From the NCBI RefSeq assembly GCF_030013595.1, contig NZ_CP122768.1: a DNA stretch of 64,000 nt. The stretch is one strand, 5' to 3'. The notes below the pieces were generated by a model, which was not told the DNA's origin, did not search any database, and worked only from the letters and a program-made list of their open reading frames with translations. Below are positions 4,416 to 59,052 of the stretch, one piece after another. The position numbers were made by a program, and so were the translations under genes. This stretch comes from Escherichia coli (lineage in GTDB: Bacteria > Pseudomonadota > Gammaproteobacteria > Enterobacterales > Enterobacteriaceae). Within the stretch, counting starts at the first letter, position 1; each line of letters begins with the position of its first letter.

Positions 4416-4641
4416 ATCAGACTCCTGAGTAGTTTTTTAATTACAAACACCAACAATCTTAGTCAATAATTAATCTAATACCATCAAATAGTTAATCATG
4501 ATTTTTGTTTTGTGATTCTGATTAAGAAAAAGAAAATACCAGACGATAAGACAAAATATCAAGCGTTGTGAAGAAATGTTATGTGCTCTTTTGCGTCTAT
4601 AGTCATGATGTCAAATGAACGCGTTTCGACAGGAAATCATC

Positions 4642-5862
4642 ATGAATAAATATCAGGCAGTGATTATTGGTTTTGGCAAGGCTGGAAAAACATTAGCCGT
4701 CACGCTGGCAAAAGCAGGTTGGCGTGTGGCTCTCATCGAACAATCAAATGCAATGTATGGCGGGACCTGTATTAATATCGGCTGTATCCCAACCAAAACA
4801 TTGGTTCATGACGCACAGCAGCACACAGATTTTGTCCGTGCCATACAGCGTAAAAATGAAGTGGTTAATTTTTTACGTAATAAGAATTTTCATAATCTTG
4901 CGGATATGCCCAATATCGACGTGATCGACGGCCAGGCGGAGTTTATCAATAATCATAGCCTGCGTGTTCATCGGCCTGAGGGAAATCTGGAGATTCATGG
5001 CGAGAAAATTTTTATTAATACCGGTGCACAAACCGTGGTTCCGCCAATTCCTGGAATTACCACCACGCCTGGTGTATATGACAGCACCGGATTACTTAAT
5101 CTAAAAGAATTGCCTGGGCATTTAGGTATTTTGGGCGGCGGATATATTGGCGTTGAGTTCGCCTCTATGTTCGCTAATTTTGGCAGCAAGGTAACCATTT
5201 TAGAAGCAGCTTCGCTGTTTTTGCCTCGGGAAGATCGGGATATTGCTGATAATATCGCGACGATTTTACGCGATCAGGGCGTCGATATTATCCTCAATGC
5301 CCATGTGGAGCGAATCAGTCACCATGAAAATCAAGTGCAAGTGCATAGCGAGCACGCCCAACTGGCGGTGGATGCACTGTTAATAGCTTCCGGTCGTCAA
5401 CCAGCTACCGCTTCGTTACATCCAGAAAATGCCGGTATCGCAGTAAACGAGCGCGGGGCAATTGTCGTTGACAAGCGATTACATACCACCGCAGACAATA
5501 TTTGGGCGATGGGAGATGTTACCGGCGGGCTGCAATTTACTTACATATCACTAGATGATTACCGCATTGTACGTGATGAGTTACTGGGTGAAGGCAAACG
5601 TAGTACTGATGATCGGAAAAATGTGCCTTATTCCGTATTTATGACACCGCCCCTGTCCAGGGTTGGTATGACAGAAGAACAAGCCAGAGAGAGTGGTGCT
5701 GATATTCAGGTGGTGACATTGCCTGTAGCTGCAATTCCGCGCGCCAGAGTGATGAACGATACCCGTGGGGTATTAAAAGCGATTGTTGATAATAAAACCC
5801 AACGTATATTAGGGGCATCACTGCTGTGTGTTGACACGAGAGTATTCAAAACACGCCAATAA
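4642..5862 (+). pseudogene. rclA: rclA (pyridine nucleotide-disulfide oxidoreductase), 5' portion; reading frame leaves native sequence after ...LLCVD (about 5835) and ends in element-derived codons TRVFKTRQ*
   Basis: GFGKAG Rossmann motif, CINIGCIPTK redox-active disulfide; K-12 RclA is 441 aa, here first 398 aa then insertion. Confidence 0.8.
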
Positions 5863-7701: not shown

Positions 7702-8355
7702 TCATAGCCAGCGCCCGGATATTTCTTCCAGTTTTTCCAGAGCTGGCTTGCAGGCCGCATCAATAACTTCACGGACCATTCCGGCGAGCTGTTCTTCTTC
7801 TGTCGGCGTTGTTACTTCCACACCTGATGGTTTCCCGCCCTTATCCCATACGCCCAACGGTACGAGCGCAACGTGATCGATAAGAAATGGCGTACCCTCA
7901 ATGAAAAAATTGTCCTCGCCCATTACATCAGGAACTTCTGCCCCACCGGACGCACCACAAAACACAACCGACGGGCTGGTGGATACCTCCCCCCGTGCTT
8001 TCTGGATGTAATCGATGATTTCCTGCCCGTAAATCCGGCATACGCCCCACACCTCGTCACCGCGAATATACGGCAACATGACGGTGCCAATAATGCGCGA
8101 CCGTTCGCCCACGTCTTCAAGGGTTTTGCTTTCGGGATGGTCGATAATGACGGGTACTCCGGCGCAACGTTCCAGGAACTGCGGATTGAGATAAGTTTGC
8201 GGTGAACGCCAGACAAATTCTTTTTCTTCGGCGCGATAGGCCATTCCGGTTCCTGTGATACGCAGGTTAATCAGCCACATGTTGGAAAACTGATAAGGCG
8301 ACGGTAGCTGACCGTCCCGAATCTGCTTTGCCGCCTCAATTTCTGTTAAAAGCAT
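7702..8355 (-). CDS. Hypothetical protein (217 aa), satellite morphogenesis/packaging region
   Basis: ORF with coding-like composition; no motif recognised. Confidence 0.45.
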   Translation of the reverse strand: MLLTEIEAAKQIRDGQLPSPYQFSNMWLINLRITGTGMAYRAEEKEFVWRSPQTYLNPQFLERCAGVPVIIDHPESKTLEDVGERSRIIGTVMLPYIRGDEVWGVCRIYGQEIIDYIQKARGEVSTSPSVVFCGASGGAEVPDVMGEDNFFIEGTPFLIDHVALVPLGVWDKGGKPSGVEVTTPTEEEQLAGMVREVIDAACKPALEKLEEISGRWL

Positions 8356-8419
8356 AATGTCCCCCGGTTATAAGCAATAAGCCCCACCAAATCCGGCAGG
8401 GCTGAAATCAGCACGTTTT

Positions 8420-9013
8420 TCATGCCCCCGCGAGGCTTGCAACGTTAATTTTAACCAGGCGACGGGGAGGGATTTTGAAAGCACTAAGCCAGTTATTCGG
8501 ATCCCCCTGATATTCAGTAATCCGCCGTCCGGCTTCATCCATTCTTACGGTTTTACGCAAATAGCCCGGCGTATTTTCCACAGCCCACTGAACACTGTCT
8601 TTTGCAGCCTGGTAAATCTGATCTTCCAGCACCGCCAGCGTTGCAGAATCTGAAACGGAACGAATATCCACATCACTGAATTTTTTAGCCAGCTTCTGTG
8701 CACCAATTAATGCACGCTTGCGGTAATCCATCGACTTTTCACCAGCAAACGGGGCTGGAGCGCGACGGCCCATATTGCTGTATGCGGAATCCGCTTTAGC
8801 CTGGGCTTCTGCCAGTGAGGATTCATCTTCGACTGACGCGACGATGTTTTTATTCGCGTCATCCTCGTCCGCTTTTGTGAAATCCTGTGCGGGGATCGCA
8901 TTCAGAATTTCGATAATCTCCTGCGGAGTGCTGCCCTGCGACTCTGACAGAGCGTTAACCACCTCCATCAGTTTTAATCGCAAATCTTCTTTGCTTGCTG
9001 GCATTTTTACCAC
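8420..9013 (-). CDS. Hypothetical protein (197 aa), acidic and Ala/Glu-rich, scaffold-like
   Basis: ORF; composition resembles phage scaffolding proteins (inference only). Confidence 0.4.
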   Translation of the reverse strand: MVKMPASKEDLRLKLMEVVNALSESQGSTPQEIIEILNAIPAQDFTKADEDDANKNIVASVEDESSLAEAQAKADSAYSNMGRRAPAPFAGEKSMDYRKRALIGAQKLAKKFSDVDIRSVSDSATLAVLEDQIYQAAKDSVQWAVENTPGYLRKTVRMDEAGRRITEYQGDPNNWLSAFKIPPRRLVKINVASLAGA

Positions 9014-9043
9014 CTCTCTTTTTTCACCAAAAAATCACGACCA

Positions 9044-12127: not shown

Positions 12128-12423
12128 TTTGTGCCCCTGAATGCGTTAATCATGTTTTTCATTTTCTGAATATTTGCCCGTGCCTTTGCGTTGCTGGTGG
12201 GCTGTTTGCGTGGTGTGGCCTGTATCAGTGAAAAATCACGCCGGAACTGATAAACAGGCATCACGCAGTCGTAGCTGTACCCATCACGGCGGTAAGTAAC
12301 GCACCGTCCGGCAATACTTTTAATCGTTACCGTGCCGCCGTAGTTATCCCGGAAAATATCGCCGGGGCGGATTTCAGGCCGAGGGAGACCACTGGCAGTA
12401 AAGCCAGAATTTTTCTTTTTCAT
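12124..12423 (-). CDS. Hypothetical protein (99 aa), translationally coupled to rep (4-bp overlap)
   Basis: ORF; operon packing. Confidence 0.45.
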   Translation of the reverse strand: MKKKNSGFTASGLPRPEIRPGDIFRDNYGGTVTIKSIAGRCVTYRRDGYSYDCVMPVYQFRRDFSLIQATPRKQPTSNAKARANIQKMKNMINAFRGTK

Positions 12424-12427
12424 GGTT

Positions 12428-12628
12428 TTATTTTCCTGTCAGCAGTTCCGGTTTTATTTCCGCACGAATACAGAGTTCAGAAAAAAATTCAGGAGAACCA
12501 ACAATCTCATTACTTTTCAGTCGGCATTGTGATTTCACTTTCCCTTTATCCAGGTAAACCAGTATGCGTCCGGTGAAATCATCTGGCACACTCAGGGTAA
12601 TTGTCATTGTTGCTTGCTGATTATCCAT
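12428..12628 (-). CDS. Hypothetical protein (66 aa) with one FTG-x-LV repeat unit
   Basis: Shares about 50-aa repeat with upstream 121-aa protein. Confidence 0.4.
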   Translation of the reverse strand: MDNQQATMTITLSVPDDFTGRILVYLDKGKVKSQCRLKSNEIVGSPEFFSELCIRAEIKPELLTGK

Positions 12629-12986
12629 GATTCACCCCCTGAATAACCTGATAACCGCAACTGGTCAGCAATTCGATAAATTCCGGCAGTGTTCCGAAAC
12701 AGCAATCATCTCGCAGCCGTTCTCGGGATACTTCAACGCCGTTTTCGTAGTGACTCACCATGCGTCCGGTAAAATGCAGATCATCATCGTGATGGCTCGT
12801 TAACGGCTTAATCAGTCGCGCACGTTCTGCCAGCTCCAGCAATGCTTCAACGCTTCCGGCAATTGCACCATCCGGCAGGTGATAATTACTTGCCACGCGT
12901 CCATTCTCCACGTTAACCAGTAGCTGCCCGGTGAATTTCTCATCAAACTGAATGCTGTTAAGGTCAGAAATTGACAGGTTAATCAT
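12621..12986 (-). CDS. Hypothetical protein (121 aa) with two internal FTG-x-LV repeat units
   Basis: Internal duplication visible in translation; 8-bp overlaps with neighbours. Confidence 0.45.
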   Translation of the reverse strand: MINLSISDLNSIQFDEKFTGQLLVNVENGRVASNYHLPDGAIAGSVEALLELAERARLIKPLTSHHDDDLHFTGRMVSHYENGVEVSRERLRDDCCFGTLPEFIELLTSCGYQVIQGVNHG

Positions 12987-13344
12987 GGCGTACCTCCTGG
13001 CGAATACGGGCAGCGAATACCATCACGCAGCCATCAGGAGATTGCTGGCGTGCTTCCTGTTCGCTGGTGGCCACGATGTGAATCACGCGCGGTTGTGCGG
13101 TGCTCAGGGCGATAAAACGCCAGATAAAATTGTTTTCGCATTTCTGAATAAACAGCGTGTTTTCTTCGCGCCCTTTCCATGTTGCCGAGATATAGCCCAT
13201 GCCATTGAGCATCTCGCAGGCATCAACCAGCGTATCAGCGGCTACGTGTACAGTGTTTTTACCGTCAGCTATGCAATCACGGTGCACCGCCAGGAAGGTG
13301 TATATAAATTTAGGGTGAGTTTGGGTATGCTGTGTTCCAGCCAT
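12979..13344 (-). CDS. Hypothetical protein (121 aa); first gene of alpA-distal operon
   Basis: ATG at 13344 with AGGT RBS; the 478-aa ORF-track extension to 14415 is judged spurious. Confidence 0.45.
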   Translation of the reverse strand: MAGTQHTQTHPKFIYTFLAVHRDCIADGKNTVHVAADTLVDACEMLNGMGYISATWKGREENTLFIQKCENNFIWRFIALSTAQPRVIHIVATSEQEARQQSPDGCVMVFAARIRQEVRHD

Positions 13345-13545
13345 AATCGTTACCTCATTTAACGGTTTGGTTAGAAGCCCCGTTACTGCTCCAACAGTGC
13401 GGGGCTTCGTCGTTTCAATTGCTGAATTGCATGTATCAGCCCTTGTGGTATTCAGATTACATTTTGGTGAATACCATTTCAAGTCTTTTTTGGTATTCAC
13501 TTTTGTATTACACTGCATCCCGTTATTAATCGGAGGTGCAAACAT

Positions 13546-13849
13546 GTCCACGAGTTCTGTTAACAATAAGTCACAGCAACTGAATGCCAGATTTCCACAT
13601 GAAGTAGTGAGTGGCATTGAGGCATCCCTACAGCCAGGGGAAACTAAAGCGAATTTTATAGTTACGGCTGTACGCGGTGAGATCGCCCGCCGCCAGGCAG
13701 AAGGAAGCGGAGAAAACCCCCTGGTTTCTTCGCTCGATGCGCTGGCGCAGGTGGAAAAAATCGGAGTCAAAGCTGCCGAGGAGATCGGGCAGCTCGTCAC
13801 CGTCGCACGTGAAGAACTCCAGCGCCGCAAGGCCAAAGAATCAGAATAA
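13546..13849 (+). CDS. Putative ribbon-helix-helix-like DNA-binding protein (101 aa), divergent from the rep operon
   Basis: GGAGG RBS; inverted repeats TGGTATTCA / TGAATACCA at about 13445-13500 upstream. Confidence 0.4.
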
Positions 13850-13906
13850 TAACTATCATCGCCGTGGTGTGAGGAACTCCGGCGCATTGCTTTACAGGTA
13901 CACAGA

Positions 13907-14107
13907 ATGACCAACAAAGAATCAACCAAAACACCATCACCAACCCGGAAGAGACGTCGCAAAAATATGACGCACGAGCATGAATCAGACAGATTCGCGC
14001 CGTGTGCGTTTGTCCTTGAGACGTTCCTTAAAGAGTACAGGCGCACAAAATTAGGGCCACATACCTGGAAAACATCGCGACATAGCGATATTAAAGAGCA
14101 GGAATAG
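13907..14107 (+). CDS. Hypothetical small basic protein (66 aa)
   Basis: ORF downstream of RHH-like gene; R/K-rich N-terminus. Confidence 0.3.
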   Translation: MTNKESTKTPSPTRKRRRKNMTHEHESDRFAPCAFVLETFLKEYRRTKLGPHTWKTSRHSDIKEQE

Positions 14108-14240
14108 CCCACCAGCAAGTCAGCATATTCACCATAATGACCCTCGGTTAAACCTAGAGTCATTGGTGCAAACCTGACACATTGCCCACCAGCCAGCAAA
14201 TCGCTATGATATTTGGGCTTATGTTTAGTGTTTTCCCATT

Positions 14241-14268
14241 GGCGACCGCCCCCGGTCGCCTTTGTTTT
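14241..14268 (+). terminator. Rho-independent terminator (GGCGACCG-cccc-CGGTCGCC + T-run)
   Basis: Perfect 8-bp stem followed by TTTGTTTTG. Confidence 0.55.
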
Positions 14269-14321
14269 GCCCGTTATCCGGCAATTGTGGCGCTTCGCCA
14301 CACGGTTGATATAATTCCCCT

Positions 14322-14392
14322 GCACTGATCCATTTTTTTCGCAGCAGGTTAATTGTTCGCAAGGGCGCTCCGGCAACGGGGCGCTTTTTGTT
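14322..14392 (+). ncRNA. Candidate ~70-nt small RNA: extended -10 (TGaTATAAT, 14307-14315) to terminator hairpin 14361-14389 with GNRA-like loop and T-run
   Basis: Promoter-like element and terminator ~70 nt apart in a 310-bp non-coding gap, convergent with alpA 3' end. Confidence 0.3.
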
Positions 14393-14419
14393 ATGTTCAT
14401 CGCGTTACGCCTCACACCA

Positions 14420-14626
14420 TTACGCAGCCGTTCCGCGCGCTTCTTCCTCGCGCTCTTTCAGCCAGGCCAGCACTTCATCTTCATACCAGCCAACACGACG
14501 CAGACCGATTTTGAAGCCTTTCGGGAATTTTCCGGCGTTGATCATGTCCTGTAGCGAACTGTCTGCCTTGATGCGCAGAATATTTTTTACTTCCTGACGG
14601 GTAAGTATTTTTCTGATTGTTTCCAC
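14420..14626 (-). CDS. alpA: AlpA-family transcriptional regulator (68 aa)
   Basis: Typical AlpA/Vis-like size and HTH (LRIKADSSLQDMINAGKFPKGFKIG) next to integrase. Confidence 0.75.
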   Translation of the reverse strand: METIRKILTRQEVKNILRIKADSSLQDMINAGKFPKGFKIGLRRVGWYEDEVLAWLKEREEEARGTAA

Positions 14627-14690
14627 TATGTTTTACCTCGTTAATCCGGCGTATTCCGGTGATAAATACGGTAAAACAGGGCAGGGCGGG

Positions 14691-14732
14691 AAAAACAGTA
14701 CCCACCGTTTTAAAACGGTACCCACTGTTTTT
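14691..14732. promoter_or_regulatory. Tandem operator-like sites AAAAC(A/G)GTACCCAC(C/T)GTTTT x2 upstream of alpA
   Basis: Two 20-bp near-identical units in the alpA promoter region. Confidence 0.4.
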
Positions 14733-14795
14733 ATCTCATTGATTACGCTTTTCTTTCTGCAAAAAAATAGCGACCGCAAAGGGCCGCTATTGTGA

Positions 14796-15026
14796 TTACC
14801 GTTTCCACTTCTTAGGTCGCCCACCGCATTTAAGGCTGGTGGGCCTCAGCACCTTGTCGATGCTTTCAGCCAGATTTTTCGATGCACCACGCGAGCGCAA
14901 AAAACTGACTACCTCGTGTTTTGTGGGGGCTGTTGATTTGTCTTCCGGATCGTATGTTGACCAGAATTCACGATTTGCCATTAACGCCAGTTGCAGCCCT
15001 TCGCCGTAGGCGGTGGTATTTTGCAT
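14796..15026 (-). CDS. Hypothetical small protein (76 aa) between int and alpA
   Basis: ORF only. Confidence 0.25.
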   Translation of the reverse strand: MQNTTAYGEGLQLALMANREFWSTYDPEDKSTAPTKHEVVSFLRSRGASKNLAESIDKVLRPTSLKCGGRPKKWKR

Positions 15027-15124: not shown

Positions 15125-16366
15125 CTACACGGCACGGATACCCCTTTTACCGCTGGCTATGGTCACTCCGGTAGCTGCAGCCTCCACAAATTCACCCCAC
15201 CAGCGCATAAGCACCACGCGCTTTTCCAGGTAGTTACTTCGGTTATATGCCCGCCTTACCTCGTTCGTGTCCACGTGTGCGAGTGCGGCCTCGATTACGT
15301 CCGGTTCGAATCCTTCCTCGTTCGCTGCTGTGCTGAATATGGCGCGTAATCCGTGAGACACCAGCACACCAGCGTAACCCATCCGGCGTAATGCAGCGTT
15401 AGCGGTCTGGCTGCTCATTGGCAGCATCGGATTTTTAAGGCTGGGAAAAACGTGTTCCCTGTGTGCGCTGATTGGCTTCATGGTTTCCAGTACAGCCATA
15501 GCCTGACCGCAAAGGGGGATCACATGGTCACGGCGCATCTTCATGCGTCCGGCTGGAATCGTCCAGGTTTCGGCATCGAGATCTATTTCTTCCCAGCGTG
15601 CGGCGGCTGCTTCGGCTGGGCGTGCTACGGTCAGCAGTTGCCACTCAATCAGCAATCTGGTTTGCCGTTCTATGCTGGCGACCGATAAATCGTGCATTAG
15701 CTGCGGTAGCTGTTCCGGTCGGATGGTTGGCATGTGCTTTTTGGTGGGTGAGGGGAATGCCTTGCGGACGTTCGCGGCGGTGTTGATGTCAATCAGCCCA
15801 CTGTTGGCGGCAAAATCCATCACTTCATTGATGCGCTGCAAAACGCGTTTCAGAGTTTCCAGGTTGCCGCGTGCTTTAATGGGGGTGAGTATCTCAACAA
15901 AGCGGCGAGCGGTGAGGGTATCTATTGGCGTGTTTCCGATGTACGGGAATACGTATTTTTCCAGGGATCGCCAGATATCCTTAATCGTGTTGTAAGCCAG
16001 ATTCTGGCCTTTTTTCATCTCGTACCAGTCCGAGGCAACTTTTTCGAACGTGTTGCCCTTTTTCCGGCTCTCTGCTTCACGTTTCCGGCGTTCATGGTCC
16101 TGTGGGTCAGTTCCCTTTGCTATTAGTGACCTGTATTCATTCCGTCGCTCTCTGGCATCAGACAGGGAAACATCATTCAGCGATCCAAGGCTGATAATAG
16201 TCCGTTTTTTATCTGCCGGGCGGTAGTACGTAAAACGCCATATTTTTGATCCGGAGGGCTTCACCAGAAGAAATAATCCTCCGCCATCCTGCAGGGTGTA
16301 TTCCTTTTCCCCTGGTCGTGCGTTTTTGATCTCCGTAATGGTTAGTGGGGTGGTTTTTCGTGCCAT
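15125..16366 (-). CDS. Tyrosine site-specific integrase (P4-type, 413 aa)
   Basis: N-terminal arm-binding-like region and C-terminal catalytic domain (HGLRAIFST ... R..Y); adjacent repeat cluster. Confidence 0.85.
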   Translation of the reverse strand: MARKTTPLTITEIKNARPGEKEYTLQDGGGLFLLVKPSGSKIWRFTYYRPADKKRTIISLGSLNDVSLSDARERRNEYRSLIAKGTDPQDHERRKREAESRKKGNTFEKVASDWYEMKKGQNLAYNTIKDIWRSLEKYVFPYIGNTPIDTLTARRFVEILTPIKARGNLETLKRVLQRINEVMDFAANSGLIDINTAANVRKAFPSPTKKHMPTIRPEQLPQLMHDLSVASIERQTRLLIEWQLLTVARPAEAAAARWEEIDLDAETWTIPAGRMKMRRDHVIPLCGQAMAVLETMKPISAHREHVFPSLKNPMLPMSSQTANAALRRMGYAGVLVSHGLRAIFSTAANEEGFEPDVIEAALAHVDTNEVRRAYNRSNYLEKRVVLMRWWGEFVEAAATGVTIASGKRGIRAV

Positions 16367-16555: not shown

Positions 16556-16710
16556 ATGCTGTCCGATATTCAATTTGGTCGGCACGAGATGATCAATATA
16601 GTGAAAATGGTGATGGATGCCGGGCTGCCTTATAGCATATTACGCGATCAGATATTTACTCATCCGTCGATGAGCGAATCACTCAATGATCTATTTTCAT
16701 TAGTCAAATA
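16556..16710 (+). pseudogene. rclA: rclA 3' remnant encoding ...HEMINIVKMVMDAGLPYSILRDQIFTHPSMSESLNDLFSLVK*
   Basis: Matches remembered RclA C-terminal dimerisation region; in-frame ATG at 16556 is element-derived. Confidence 0.7.
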
Positions 16711-16819
16711 AACTCAAAATCAGACGCCAGAACAAATATTCTGGCGTCTCAGAGAAAAGAATCTTATTAATTCCCTGTTACTTTATAACTTCTTAATCAC
16801 TTCATTGATGGTATTTTAT

Positions 16820-38025: not shown

Positions 38026-38059
38026 CTATAATCGCGGGGCTTCGTTTTTCAGGGATAAC
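38026..38059 (+). terminator. Terminator after ykgJ (GCCCCGC ... GCGGGGC + T-run)
   Basis: Stem-loop with TTCGTTTTT. Confidence 0.55.
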
Positions 38060-38241
38060 AAAACCCGAAACTTCTTCCATCTGCCAGCAACAATGCCTCT
38101 TCCTCTATAGTGTTCTCCGGATCTACAGCATCCTGAAGTAGCGCGATGTACTCATTGGCTATCTGCATCAGAAAGTTAAAAACAATGTTTTTAACCTATA
38201 AAAATGGCGCTTTATTTGCGCCATTTTTATCATTCAATGCA

Positions 38242-54849: not shown

Positions 54850-55525
54850 CGATCTGACATTTGCATTCAACTTCGTTACTTACGGCCCGTAAACGGGCTG
54901 CCCGGATATGGAATCGATAACTGCTCCCCCATTTTATCCTCTTCAAGCTGGTGCTTTATGTAGTCCTGTATCTTCGCCGTGTTCTTACCCACCGTATCGA
55001 CATAGTACCCTCGGCACCAGAACTCCCTGTTTCTGTATTTGAATTTCAAATCCCCAAACTGCTCGTAAAGCATCAGACTGCTTTTCCCTTTCAGATATCC
55101 CATAAAGCCGGATACGCTCATTTTGGGTGGGATTTCCACAAGCATATGGATATGATCTGCGCAGCACTCTGCTTCCAGAATCCGTACGCTTTTCCACTCA
55201 CACAGCTTTCTCAAAATACTGCCTATCGCCCTACGCTTCTCTCCGTAAAACGCCAGTCTTCGGTATTTCGGCGCAAAAACTATGTGATATTTACAGTTCC
55301 AGCGGGTGTGCGCTAAGCTCTTTTCGTCCCCCATTGGGACCCCCTTTTGATTTCTTGTTTGACACTTGCAGTTGCCAGACCGCAAGGTGTTTTAACAAAT
55401 CAAAAGGGGTTTTAATAACTGGCTCAAAGCTGAAAGCTTTCCGGAACCCCCAGCCTAGCTGGGGGTTTTCTGTGCACAAAAAGCCGCGTCTCCCGGAGAA
55501 GACGCGGCCTGATGGGTGAAATGAA
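54850..55525. mobile_element. IS200/IS605-family insertion sequence (approximate ends)
   Basis: Y1/HUH transposase ORF flanked by structured ends; hairpins at 55340-55520. Confidence 0.65.
54876..55334 (-). CDS. tnpA: IS200-type transposase TnpA (about 152 aa)
   Basis: HUH motif HIHMLVEIPP and catalytic Tyr region YYVDTVG. Confidence 0.8.
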   Translation of the reverse strand: MGDEKSLAHTRWNCKYHIVFAPKYRRLAFYGEKRRAIGSILRKLCEWKSVRILEAECCADHIHMLVEIPPKMSVSGFMGYLKGKSSLMLYEQFGDLKFKYRNREFWCRGYYVDTVGKNTAKIQDYIKHQLEEDKMGEQLSIPYPGSPFTGRK

Positions 55526-58681: not shown

Positions 58682-58898
58682 CAGCTTTTCCTTACAGAGG
58701 GTGAATAAAAAAGCCGGTACCCACAAATATGGGTACCGGCAGGTACAAAACAGCATGGTCAGATAAAGTGGTTTTTCCCGGACATAAATGCTTCTCCTCT
58801 CTCATCCGCCAGAGAAGTATCAGTCCGTTGTGTGCAATTCCGTTCTGCATGATGAAGAGATTCAGCTGCCTTTTCGCAGACCATTAACCACTATAAAC

Positions 58899-58934
58899 GA
58901 TCGATGGTAACGATCGATACATGTTTTATCGATC
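58899..58934. promoter_or_regulatory. Three GATC (Dam) sites at 58899, 58912, 58931 in Ag43 upstream region: OxyR/Dam phase-variation switch
   Basis: cGATCGATggtaacGATCGATacatgttttatcGATCGtttt, 220-250 bp upstream of flu start. Confidence 0.65.
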
Positions 58935-59052
58935 GTTTTATTCTATTAACAGCAAGGCAGTCACGCAAGAGAAAGAGGTGGGTATGAGGTGTTTGTGTCA
59001 TGTTTTCAGTTGGTTAACGCAATGTAATCAGGCATTTCCCCTGGCAGAGTGT

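Follow-up and report, generated by a model that had tools for sequence, protein, structure and literature searches.

A candidate cis-antisense RNA unit within a long open leader frame beside alpA of an Escherichia coli satellite of the PICI type

The 310-bp gap between orf66 and alpA of an Escherichia coli satellite element forms the part of its Bro zone nearest to alpA, and both strands of this segment are used. The plus strand contains two units, A and B, each ending in a terminator (T1 and T2, respectively), and the second of these units probably gives rise to a non-coding RNA of approximately 70 nt (RNA B). The minus strand is occupied by a long open frame, which starts immediately past alpA and which, judging from the homology of its end and from its position, is the counterpart of the P4 eta/kil frame. 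We propose that RNA B acts in cis, as an antisense RNA restraining transcriptional read-through from alpA, with T1 and T2 protecting alpA and int from plus-strand transcription. We consider this proposal possible, although somewhat short of probable. In current annotation this selected, dual-use segment is left empty or labelled "pseudogenes".

The window (the whole 64-kb stretch of E. coli DNA that was analysed) carries the island at about 5.9-16.5 kb, inserted at a gene for a pyridine-nucleotide disulphide oxidoreductase. From its gene content and order we read it as a satellite of the Gram-negative PICI type of approximately 10.7 kb: int and alpA are located at one end and are followed by replication genes, the size is within the range of about 10-20 kb, and a phage structural and lysis gene set is absent. 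The element had initially been annotated as a P4-type satellite, which it is not, i.e. it is no P4 with sid, psu and delta. Domain searches of the island returned integrase domains, Phage_AlpA, Icd-like, YlcI, AAA_25, ProQ/FinO and PerC, and the gene order (int, alpA, "Bro zone", icd-like, DUF4222, AAA_25 replication protein) is identical in its relatives. The succession int-alpA-Bro zone-replication is also shared with EcCICFT073 and EcCIMP1. In the available text of PMC6092414 and PMC10111431 (section 20), PICIs are divided into Integration, Bro, Replication and Late zones, and AlpA is described there, as well as in that of PMC11773190, as a helper-induced activator needed for PICI induction. 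The activity of a reporter placed 3' of the alpA stop of EcCICFT073 depended on alpA, and the global repressor of Gram-negative PICIs is called unclear (both PMC6092414). The parts described here (Table 1) bear on the silencing of these islands and on their switching on by helper phages.

Table 1. Features in and around the gap between orf66 and alpA (window coordinates)
Feature	Coordinates	Strand	Remarks
Nested kil/Icd-like gene, 121 aa	12979..13344	-	SD GAGG 13356-13353, ATG 13344; shares the frame of the long ORF
Putative long leader ORF of the eta/kil type, GTG 14415, 478 aa	12979..14415	-	stop-free from 14458
YlcI/YnfO-family gene (ylcI)	13544..13849	+	NCBIfam NF041551, E=1.3e-16; PHROG 6522
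orf66, small basic protein	13907..14107	+	PHROG 21027, E=7e-31; last plus-strand gene before the gap
Chi octamer GCTGGTGG	14109..14116	-	overlaps the orf66 stop
Extra stem-loop	14130..14168	+	restricted to the window and the L001 and L016 subtype
Unit A promoter-like site, TTGCCC, 17 nt, TATGAT	14182..14210	+	-35 overlaps a Chi octamer
Chi octamer GCTGGTGG	14186..14193	-	overlaps the unit A -35; conserved in most relatives
Unit A	14217..14268	+	possible RNA of ~52 nt or 3' end of the ylcI-orf66 transcript
Terminator T1: GGCGACCG / loop CCCC / CGGTCGCC, then TTTGTTTT	14241..14268	+	terminator scan; hairpin 14241-14260, T-run to 14268
Unit B extended -10, TGaTATAAT	14307..14315	+	unique in the window
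Candidate cis-antisense RNA B, ~70 nt	14322..14392	+	predicted start 7 nt past the -10; 3' end at the T-run of T2
Conserved single-stranded 3' core of RNA B, CGCAGCAGGTTAATTGTTCGCAA	14340..14362	+	occurs once in the window
Terminator T2: 12-bp stem, loop GCAA, then TTTTTGTT	14361..14392	+	terminator scan; hairpin 14361-14388
Likely leader ORF start: GAGG 14413-14410, ATG 14400-14398	14398..14413	-	ATG conserved in this flank type
alpA, AlpA/Vis-family HTH regulator, 68 aa	14420..14626	-	Pfam Phage_AlpA, E=4.5e-8; stop codon 14422-14420

By sequence, T1 and T2 are both intrinsic terminators, each being composed of a G+C-rich hairpin followed by a U-run on the plus strand. Terminator-like sites are abundant in this region (11 in 2.5 kb vs 3.1 +/- 2.1 in shuffled sequences), and T1 and T2 are the top two of them. 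Both hairpins are kept in the relatives of the island despite changes on both arms. In 22 variants T1 is represented by two stem families, GGCGACC/GGTCGCC and GGCCACC/GGTGGCC; T2 also has two stem families, which differ on both arms and which each form a 12-bp stem. Since MAFFT left the T2 families out of structural register, this terminator was assessed by fold energies calculated for each variant and not by covariation counts: in 20/20 variants the plus-strand hairpin (-10.7 to -19.5 kcal/mol) is more stable than its minus-strand counterpart (-5.4 to -13.1 kcal/mol). The RNA fold z-scores are -4.6 for unit A and -2.2 for RNA B.

Unit A, considered together with its promoter-like site (14182-14268), would end the ylcI-orf66 transcript and would perhaps also generate an RNA of its own, of about 52 nt. 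In other variants of the site the -35 sequence and the 17-nt spacer are unchanged, and the -10 reads TATCAT, CATAGT or CATTGT. Many genomes have a module corresponding to positions 14174-14269 alone, 3' of ylcI; in O157:H7, one of these, it lies directly against alpA.

Unit B (14307-14392) would yield the RNA of approximately 70 nt from its own extended -10 promoter. Its TGaTATAAT is the sole perfect match to TGNTATAAT on both strands of the 64-kb window, and it is nearly invariant within a variable stretch: among 43 distinct type-I sequences only 1/9 of its columns varies (a singleton), vs 21/30 columns upstream and 16/25 downstream. The segment from T1 to T2 recurs in 429 (about 8%) of 5426 complete E. 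coli genomes, and the matches end at 14392-14396, i.e. at the T-run of T2, where homology breaks off and is followed by at least five different downstream flanks. Strain STEC379 (NZ_CP091024) matches positions 14262-14425 at 100% identity. The same 3' core stands behind three unrelated promoter-like 5' segments (TGaTATAAT; TTGCCC-17-TATCAT; TTCACT-17-TATAAT). The conservation of the core in the locus set is partly circular, because the core itself was the search pattern for most loci, and related loci inflate the conservation counts. No match to the core pattern was obtained in the species-representative genomes, and a cross-genus covariation set could therefore not be built. A distant PICI (L031), whose AlpA is 69% identical, has a TATAAT, a short RNA segment and a hairpin with T-run that converge on the alpA stop, all of unrelated sequence. 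The RNA B segment contains no plus-strand ATG, and the only plus-strand ORF in it, which starts with TTG, extends across the terminator.

The strong terminator, the extended -10 and the second hairpin with its GNRA-like loop and T-run, all listed in the initial annotation, are indeed present, and the conservation that it expected of the hairpins in related elements was found. Comparative evidence also favours the ~70-nt plus-strand transcript that it suggested, reaching from the extended -10 to T2 and convergent with alpA. In support of such a transcript are the conserved -10, the boundary of homology at the T-run, the combination of three unrelated promoter-bearing 5' segments with one core and the stronger hairpin on the plus strand, and it is from these sequence and conservation data that we infer that RNA B is made. 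The suggestion needs amendment in one respect, in that the RNA overlaps the first ~25 codons of the leader frame and not alpA.

An explanation in which T1 and T2 are insulators only must be considered. They would then be tandem terminators that end the ylcI-orf66 transcript and protect alpA and int, with TGaTATAAT either not working or producing an RNA without regulatory function. Terminators of this kind are common at convergent gene pairs; module A with T1 is always found just 3' of ylcI/orf66, and both sites are plus-strand terminators by sequence. We nevertheless regard this explanation as unlikely. Because the strong T1 lies just upstream, a second terminator 120 nt further on is redundant unless transcription restarts between the two, and the near-invariance and uniqueness of the -10, as well as the three unrelated promoter-like segments preceding one core, are not accounted for. 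Moreover, termination does not need a conserved single-stranded core of 23 nt upstream of T2.

If RNA B is made, it might alternatively act in trans (as perhaps might RNA A), possibly in an Hfq-dependent manner, with the core GCAGCAGGUUAAUUGUUCGCAA directed against helper-phage or host mRNAs and with the antisense position being incidental. Its build is typical of such regulators (a U-rich 5' part lacking structure, a single-stranded core that is conserved, and a terminator ending in a U tail), the module travels between islands as a unit, and in pathogenic E. coli trans-acting sRNAs, e.g. Esr41, are encoded by islands and prophages (PMC5286369). This mode of action is quite improbable, since neither a second copy of the core nor its complement is present in the window at up to three mismatches, duplex scans of the island for RNA B targets gave no outlier, and the module is invariably placed within the leader frame, with a single orientation and reading frame. 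As names for RNA B, Esr41 and "EcOnc" were rejected, Esr41 being located on a different island. No known Rfam 15 family was detected in the gap when the whole window was searched at the gathering threshold, and at E<=10 positions 13800-14800 gave nothing except chance-level terminator look-alikes. A full-text literature search for the core sequence returned nothing relevant.

The gap had been described as non-coding, with no plausible ORF, but it lies wholly inside the minus-strand leader ORF, which also runs antisense through orf66 and ylcI. Between 13131 and 14458 (442 codons) the three minus frames contain 30, 0 and 25 stops, the leader frame being the one with none. This frame starts 5-20 nt past the alpA stop; the alternative GTG start in the window is 5 nt past it. 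The equivalent of the Shine-Dalgarno sequence and ATG adjoins a terminator in the L030, L079 and O157 L004 types as well. Its distance to the T-run is 8-9 nt in the window and in the L030 and L079 types, and in O157 L004 it is T1, not T2, that adjoins the ORF start (MTHKTKATCGG...). The C-terminal part of the leader ORF matches the Icd-like domain NF033153 (aa 430-473, E=1.7e-21). The nested gene in this part matches PHROG 6196/1743, and the N-terminus of its product aligns with that of P4 Kil.

Sequence comparisons indicate clear selection on the leader frame against stop codons. It is open for at least 200 codons in 96 distinct ORFs of relatives, which form 72 clusters at 85% identity. Nearly all of the 106 distinct loci with the B core have the same frame open over 200-819 codons, and in about 63 of them it is fused in frame to the Icd-like domain. 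The spacings between two anchors show five different lengths, all congruent modulo 3, with the lone exception of L088, whose frame is broken. In loci that do not contain the B core (O157 L004, L021, L022 and L031), and also in P4, a long frame likewise ends in an Icd-like domain. Selection of this kind would imply that the leader is translated.

It could be argued from the same data that the long ORF encodes a functional protein of the Bro/Ash network and that the plus-strand look-alikes are by-products of its coding sequence. Apart from the selection against stops, the PGAP names given to pieces of the frame in relatives ("ash family" or "Icd-like"), the BRO-N-like residues that open the frame in some loci and the placement of P4 eta in the Bro network (in the available text of PMC10111431) are in line with this possibility. 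It is, however, very improbable. The upstream part of approximately 350 aa had no match in Pfam and PHROG searches and the product contains 5.5% Cys, so that it looks non-protein-like, and the sequence is pieced together from unrelated segments, as seen in the 72 clusters. The T2 hairpin is kept although its two families encode different peptides (APLPERP vs APIWSRL), and neither the T-runs that follow the hairpins nor the greater stability of the plus strand is explained by peptide coding.

Returning to the antisense proposal, the geometry can be read directly from the sequence. RNA B is fully complementary to the leader mRNA from +9 relative to the AUG at 14400 (+24 relative to the GUG at 14415) to about +79 (+94), and covers codons 3-26 of the leader ORF. 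In other types the arrangement differs: the leader ATG precedes the B module by about 30 codons in the L037 and L048 types and by about 80 in the L005 type, in the L150 type B is located at the 3' end of an antA/B gene, and the L033 flank type (24 loci) lacks an in-frame ATG close to the module. As some types have the B module elsewhere than at the beginning of the frame, a block of initiation cannot be its general mode of action.

A terminator scan found no minus-strand terminator-like sites between the alpA stop and 14113, i.e. alpA has no intrinsic terminator. Translation of the leader would allow read-through transcripts from alpA to reach the nested kil/Icd-like gene and the replication genes. 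RNA B would pair with such leaky transcripts, and pairing would either stop the loading of ribosomes on the leader ORF or prompt cleavage by RNase III. The downstream RNA, left untranslated, would then be exposed to Rho, and the icd-like and replication genes would stay off until a helper phage drives alpA expression past the antisense RNA. T1 and T2 would, in addition, block plus-strand transcription from entering alpA and int in the antisense direction. That RNA B represses, rather than promotes, expression of the genes behind it is the direction that we infer. Rho-dependent termination in the leader is proposed solely by analogy with P4; C-rich, G-poor stretches of the minus RNA (around 13715-13600 and 13377-13250) are only suggestive in this respect.

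A more general form of this idea, which we regard as rather doubtful, is that a large family of E. coli satellites uses a non-protein-like frame of several hundred codons purely as a "ribosome shield" across an immunity cassette, allowing alpA-driven transcripts to reach the replication genes, with a cis-antisense RNA at the head of the frame as the gate that holds the island silent. The cassette crossed by the frame would be ylcI in some islands and a CI/seqA pair of the P4 type in others. If true, this arrangement would constitute the missing repressor logic of Gram-negative PICIs. Its parts are testable: a translated leader that connects alpA with the replication genes, exchangeable immunity cassettes (ylcI or CI/seqA) embedded in it, and a conserved antisense RNA unit heading the leader in the complete E. 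coli genomes counted above. If the model holds, de-repression of the islands would be expected from a few synonymous changes in the -10, and this would be useful for satellite biology and for PICI-based engineering.

According to the available text of PMC10111431 (citing Forti 1999), translation of P4 eta, coupled to that of the alpA homologue, prevents premature termination, and transcripts from the upstream induced promoter therefore reach the replication genes. The corresponding P4 ORF (8168-8812) overlaps vis (8764-9030) and ends in Kil (NF033153, E=1.4e-20). The likeness to the island consists in an AlpA-family gene (vis in P4) followed by a long ORF ending in a Kil/Icd-like domain, with NF033153 matched in both, and in the replication genes located 3' of the leader. 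In addition, relatives of the island (L001, L016, L022 and L031) carry C4 and isrK, the Rfam families of CI and seqA, inside the leader frame, as P4 does inside eta. The two systems differ in the length of the frame (478 aa here vs 214 aa in P4) and in that the island leader has no CI/seqA RNAs and runs antisense through ylcI and orf66. The units with promoter and terminator on the opposite strand have no annotated equivalent in the P4 record, and the candidate regulator of the island is a cis-antisense RNA with its own promoter, whereas that of P4 is a processed RNA of the same strand. The suggestion of P4-type RNA immunity made on first inspection was a useful lead to P4-type control, but C4 and isrK are both absent from the window at the gathering threshold and from 12400-14800 at E<=10. 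It is thus extremely improbable that the gap encodes a processed same-strand CI-like RNA with seqA/seqC targets, in spite of the copies in P4 and the four relatives, as the latter lie near the icd-like gene, on the alpA strand and outside the gap, and the structures of the gap itself are plus-strand features.

Three other phage systems resemble the proposed one. The sar RNA of the P22 immI region is an antisense RNA of approximately 69 nt, transcribed from the arc-ant junction opposite to the operon, which base-pairs with the start region of the next cistron, whose translation it represses. RNA B is positioned in the same way, at the junction of alpA and the leader ORF; it is nevertheless not related to sar in sequence or family (the sole Rfam "sar" match in 12400-14800, at 13374-13409, is at chance level with E=4 and lies elsewhere than RNA B), and its target is a leader ORF with a proposed role in elongation, not an antirepressor gene. 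In P1 and P7, the c4 antisense RNA is said to block translation of icd, after which Rho silences the downstream genes, a finding attributed to Biere, Citron and Schuster in 1992. The same logic is proposed for RNA B, and the downstream gene in the island is of the Icd-like family. By contrast, c4 is a processed same-strand RNA of the Rfam C4 family, which acts in trans on its own transcript. The OOP RNA of lambda (77 nt), produced from its own promoter and ended by an intrinsic terminator, converges on the 3' end of cII and acts via RNase III cleavage of the duplex. Candidate RNA B is similarly a small, terminator-ended antisense RNA convergent on a regulator gene, alpA, but OOP overlaps the 3' end of cII, while RNA B ends 28 nt before the alpA stop and overlaps the next frame. 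The available text of the PICI papers (PMC6092414, PMC11773190 and PMC10111431) describes neither an opposite-strand small RNA unit beside alpA nor an antisense ylcI in the leader or an open frame spanning the zone.

Several further candidates in the gap were rejected. A type I toxin or small plus-strand peptide was considered, and the 48-aa and 40-aa frames in question cross T1 and are not conserved across variants (MRWG* in the A2 type). An operator palindrome (GTGGCG-CTT-CGCCAC, 14287-14301) is not conserved as a palindrome, the apparent covariation of a 5' stem of RNA B (CCUGC/GCAGG) is inconsistent between sequences, and the resemblance of the T1 stem to lambda cos amounts to just 7/12. 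With respect to the flanking plus-strand genes, a solved-structure search with YlcI, which may be a ribbon-helix-helix protein, gave no informative match. The ylcI gene, antisense to and inside the leader ORF, is annotated in relatives, where homologues of orf66 show 63-94% identity. The extra stem-loop located between orf66 and unit A represents an insertion of 30 or 45 nt, in which the minus frame is preserved.

The roughly 10.7 kb around the gap, the interval between orf66 and alpA, is a satellite of the Gram-negative PICI type. Its gene order runs from an integrase through a small ORF and alpA to ylcI and orf66, which are on the plus strand, followed by minus-strand genes for an Icd-like protein, small ORFs, DUF4222, an AAA_25 replication protein, ProQ/FinO and PerC. 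The insertion target is a pyridine-nucleotide disulphide oxidoreductase gene, whose N-terminal part (415 aa) and C-terminal fragment (51 aa) lie on either side of the island, next to genes that we take to resemble rclR/rclA/rclB/rclC. A tRNA search of the window revealed no tRNA gene near the insertion point, unlike relatives with near-identical alpA, which are integrated at tRNA-Pro; annotated E. coli relatives have the same gene order at different integration sites. In the PICI layout described by PMC10111431, PMC6092414 and PMC11773190 the zones are Integration, Bro, Replication and Late, and the activator that the helper induces is AlpA.

Coordinates of the features in the window
Feature	Position	Strand	Basis or remark
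Oxidoreductase parts	4615-5862, 16556-16711		flank island
Leader ORF	12979-14415	-	478 aa; open from 14458; holds entire gap
ylcI (ylcI/ynfO family)	13544-13849	+	
orf66	13907-14107	+	borders gap on side away from alpA
Gap	14108-14419		
Chi sites within gap	14109-14116, 14186-14193		octamer search
Promoter-like site before T1, TTGCCC-17-TATGAT	14182-14210	+	precedes T1
T1 hairpin GGCGACCG/CCCC/CGGTCGCC	14241-14260, then TTTGTTTT	+	terminator scan
Extended -10 of unit B, TGaTATAAT	14307-14315	+	pattern search
T2 hairpin, 12-bp, loop GCAA	14361-14388, then TTTTTGTT	+	terminator scan
alpA	14420-14626	-	Pfam Phage_AlpA, E=4.5e-8
Integrase	15125-16366		before small ORF and alpA
IS009	38036-38236	-	Rfam gathering level
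STnc490 Hfq-binding RNA	55344-55467	-	Rfam gathering level
IS102 RNA	58700-58936	-	Rfam gathering level

The initial annotation had placed two plus-strand terminators and an extended -10 element in the gap. Both terminators (T1 and T2) are present there and are the best two of 11 scan sites (3.1 +/- 2.1 in shuffles), while a perfect match to TGNTATAAT occurs nowhere in the 64 kb, on either strand, except at the -10 element. Its statement that the gap contains no plausible ORF had to be abandoned, because the leader ORF on the minus strand spans the entire gap. Folded on the plus strand, 14217-14268 has a z-score of -4.6 and 14322-14392, the candidate RNA B, one of -2.2; the complement of the latter folds with z = +0.6. 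An Rfam search found no known RNA family in the gap.

Over the 442 codons from 13131 to 14458, the stops in the three minus frames number 30, 0 and 25. The open one may start 5 nt after the alpA stop (GTG 14415) or 20 nt after it (ATG 14400, with GAGG at 14413-14410); it passes antisense through orf66 and then ylcI, and finishes with an Icd-like domain (NF033153, E=1.7e-21), which belongs to a nested kil/Icd-like gene with a separate SD and a separate ATG (13344). The frame is open for 200-819 codons in nearly all of 106 distinct related loci and is fused in frame to an Icd-like domain in about 63 of them; loci lacking the core of unit B have the frame as well. The 96 distinct leader ORFs of at least 200 codons form 72 clusters at 85% identity. 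The spacing between two anchors takes five different values, all congruent modulo 3, the lone exception (L088) having a broken frame. Module B of this viral contig has an extra T at the T7 run, and its broken frame has 59 codons; in the window the T7 run of RNA B (14331-14339) reads as A7 in the leader frame (GAA AAA AAT), a slippery site. One plus frame is common to ylcI and orf66 (13544-14107), and from the coordinates their third codon positions coincide with those of the leader frame, the least constraining arrangement for an antisense overlap. The YlcI sequence contains no Tyr.

Several observations suggest that unit B, from the extended -10 to T2, is a plus-strand small-RNA gene. Among 43 distinct type-I sequences, variation in the 9-nt extended -10 is confined to a singleton in one column, against 21 variable columns in the 30 nt upstream and 16 in the 25 nt downstream. 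One 3' core (GCGCAG..GGTTAATTGTTC..T2) stands behind 5' parts of three unrelated kinds, all bearing a good promoter-like sequence: the window type has TGaTATAAT, the L003/L030 type has TTGCCC-17-TATCAT and the L021/L150 type has TTCACT-17-TATAAT. Most loci were collected with the core as search pattern, so that its conservation among them is partly circular. A more distant island (L031) carries in the same place an unrelated unit of TATAAT, putative short RNA and hairpin/T-run, also convergent on alpA. Each of 20 T2 variants folds more stably on the plus strand (-10.7 to -19.5 kcal/mol) than on the minus strand (-5.4 to -13.1). T2 comes in two stem families, one pairing GCGCUCCG with CGGGGCGC around a GCAA loop and the other GCGGCUCC with GGGGCCGC around AUAUC; two pairs are changed on both sides and two on one side, and one sub-variant replaces C-G with U-A. 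Since the families encode different minus-frame peptides (APLPERP vs APIWSRL), what is conserved is the structure. That T1 and T2 are terminators only is unlikely: T1 is strong and lies 40 nt upstream of the unit B -10, so that T2 makes sense only if transcription restarts between the two. We consider RNA B probably a real RNA.

The gap is a mosaic of two mobile modules, into which a Megablast search of 5426 complete E. coli genomes divides it: module A (~14174-14269, ending at T1) and module B (~14254-14392, from T1 to T2), each of which occurs without the other. Module A invariably follows ylcI or orf66, and in O157:H7 it directly adjoins alpA. Module B is present in 429 of the 5426 genomes; its matches end at the T2 T-run, with at least five unrelated flanks beyond. 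When its core was used as a pattern to scan viral contigs, 114 stretches and 59 distinct 200-nt contexts were obtained.

From +9 of the AUG at 14400, the leader-frame mRNA and RNA B (~14322-14392) are perfect complements. Similarly close spacing of start codon and terminator complement recurs in the L030 and L079 types, and in O157 T1 with module A takes the start-adjacent place instead of T2. We tentatively propose, as a possibility somewhat short of even, that RNA B base-pairs with the low level of RNA reading through from alpA, so that leader translation would be blocked or the RNA cleaved; the downstream RNA, left untranslated, would then be terminated, as in P4 immunity. Untranslated downstream RNA is likewise terminated in P1 c4/icd. 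Strong, helper-induced alpA transcription would overcome the block, and T1 and T2 would in addition shield alpA and int from transcription of ylcI-orf66. Where, as in some subtypes, the leader starts 30-80 codons upstream of module B, the action could only be cleavage or transcriptional interference. By analogy, RNA B may work like the antisense RNAs P22 sar or lambda OOP; a trans-acting sRNA is rather improbable. Neither Rfam nor a full-text search with the core sequence yielded a described family for RNA B.

A functional Bro/Ash protein would account for everything only with very low probability. Other subtypes (L005, L037, L048, L031 and L150) are of two sorts: in some the leader frame starts with BRO-N/AntA-like residues (MK..Y.PEQGRGFVRP..; FAEIIPVISG..), and in others a full bro/antA gene lies between alpA and the frame, overlapping it by a few bases. 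The junk-like leader therefore seems to be what is left of Bro genes after truncation, with no break in translation. No Pfam or PHROG family matches the upstream ~350 aa of the leader ORF, whose Cys content is 5.5%, which suggests selection on the openness of the frame rather than on the peptide. In relatives (L001-L003, NZ_CM128594, NZ_AP045170 and others), PGAP either gives pieces of the frame no annotation or calls them pseudogenes ('ash family protein' or 'Icd-like protein') that bear the mark 'missing C-terminus', a systematic annotation artefact of this dual-use region.

The arrangement in the window is that of P4 eta/kil, which it resembles in position, C-terminal domain and frame conservation. 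In P4 a 214-aa ORF (8168-8812) overlaps the AlpA homologue vis (8764-9030); it matches, at E=1.4e-20, the Icd-like model also hit by the window frame, and its final 65 aa are Kil, with whose N-terminus the window's nested gene aligns. According to PMC10111431 (citing Forti et al. 1999), translating eta keeps termination from occurring, which lets the late promoter read on into downstream genes, and CI and seqA sit within eta (see also PMC4825925). The latter feature differs: Rfam C4 and isrK are located within P4 eta and within the leader frame of L001, L016, L022 and L031, but were not found in the window, and a P4-type CI RNA in the gap is thus extremely improbable. Across the gap L001 and the window share 97% identity, yet L001 has isrK (seqA) and C4 (CI), at its 5239-5424 and on the alpA strand, in place of ylcI, as do L016, L022 and L031; ylcI and isrK+C4 appear to be alternative cassettes in one frame, resembling interchangeable immunity cassettes. 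PMC6092414, PMC11773190 and PMC10111431 mention neither an opposite-strand RNA unit beside alpA nor genes antisense within the leader frame, and the reading given here is a comparative one. A minus-strand stem-loop, GAAGCCCCG...CGGGGCUUC (13375-13409), lies in a C-rich, G-poor stretch just upstream of the nested SD and ATG; its Rfam matches are at chance level only (sar E=4, RsaJ E=0.12), and it might correspond here to the start region of P4 timm/kil.

The island shows strong enrichment of the Chi octamer GCTGGTGG, with 15 sites in ~10.5 kb (1.43 per kb, both orientations, between 5988 and 15204) and 5 in the remaining ~53 kb of the window. It is the commonest of 168 octamers of the same composition (15 vs a mean of 0.56). 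A literature search found no paper linking Chi sites with PICIs; their density over 114 related satellite contigs (1.13 Mb) is 0.97 per kb, and the conserved 'TTGCCCACCAGCC' acting as putative -35 of unit A, the T1-ended segment, is itself a Chi site. Elsewhere in the window, unrelated to the gap, Rfam detected IS009, the STnc490 Hfq-binding RNA and IS102 RNA.
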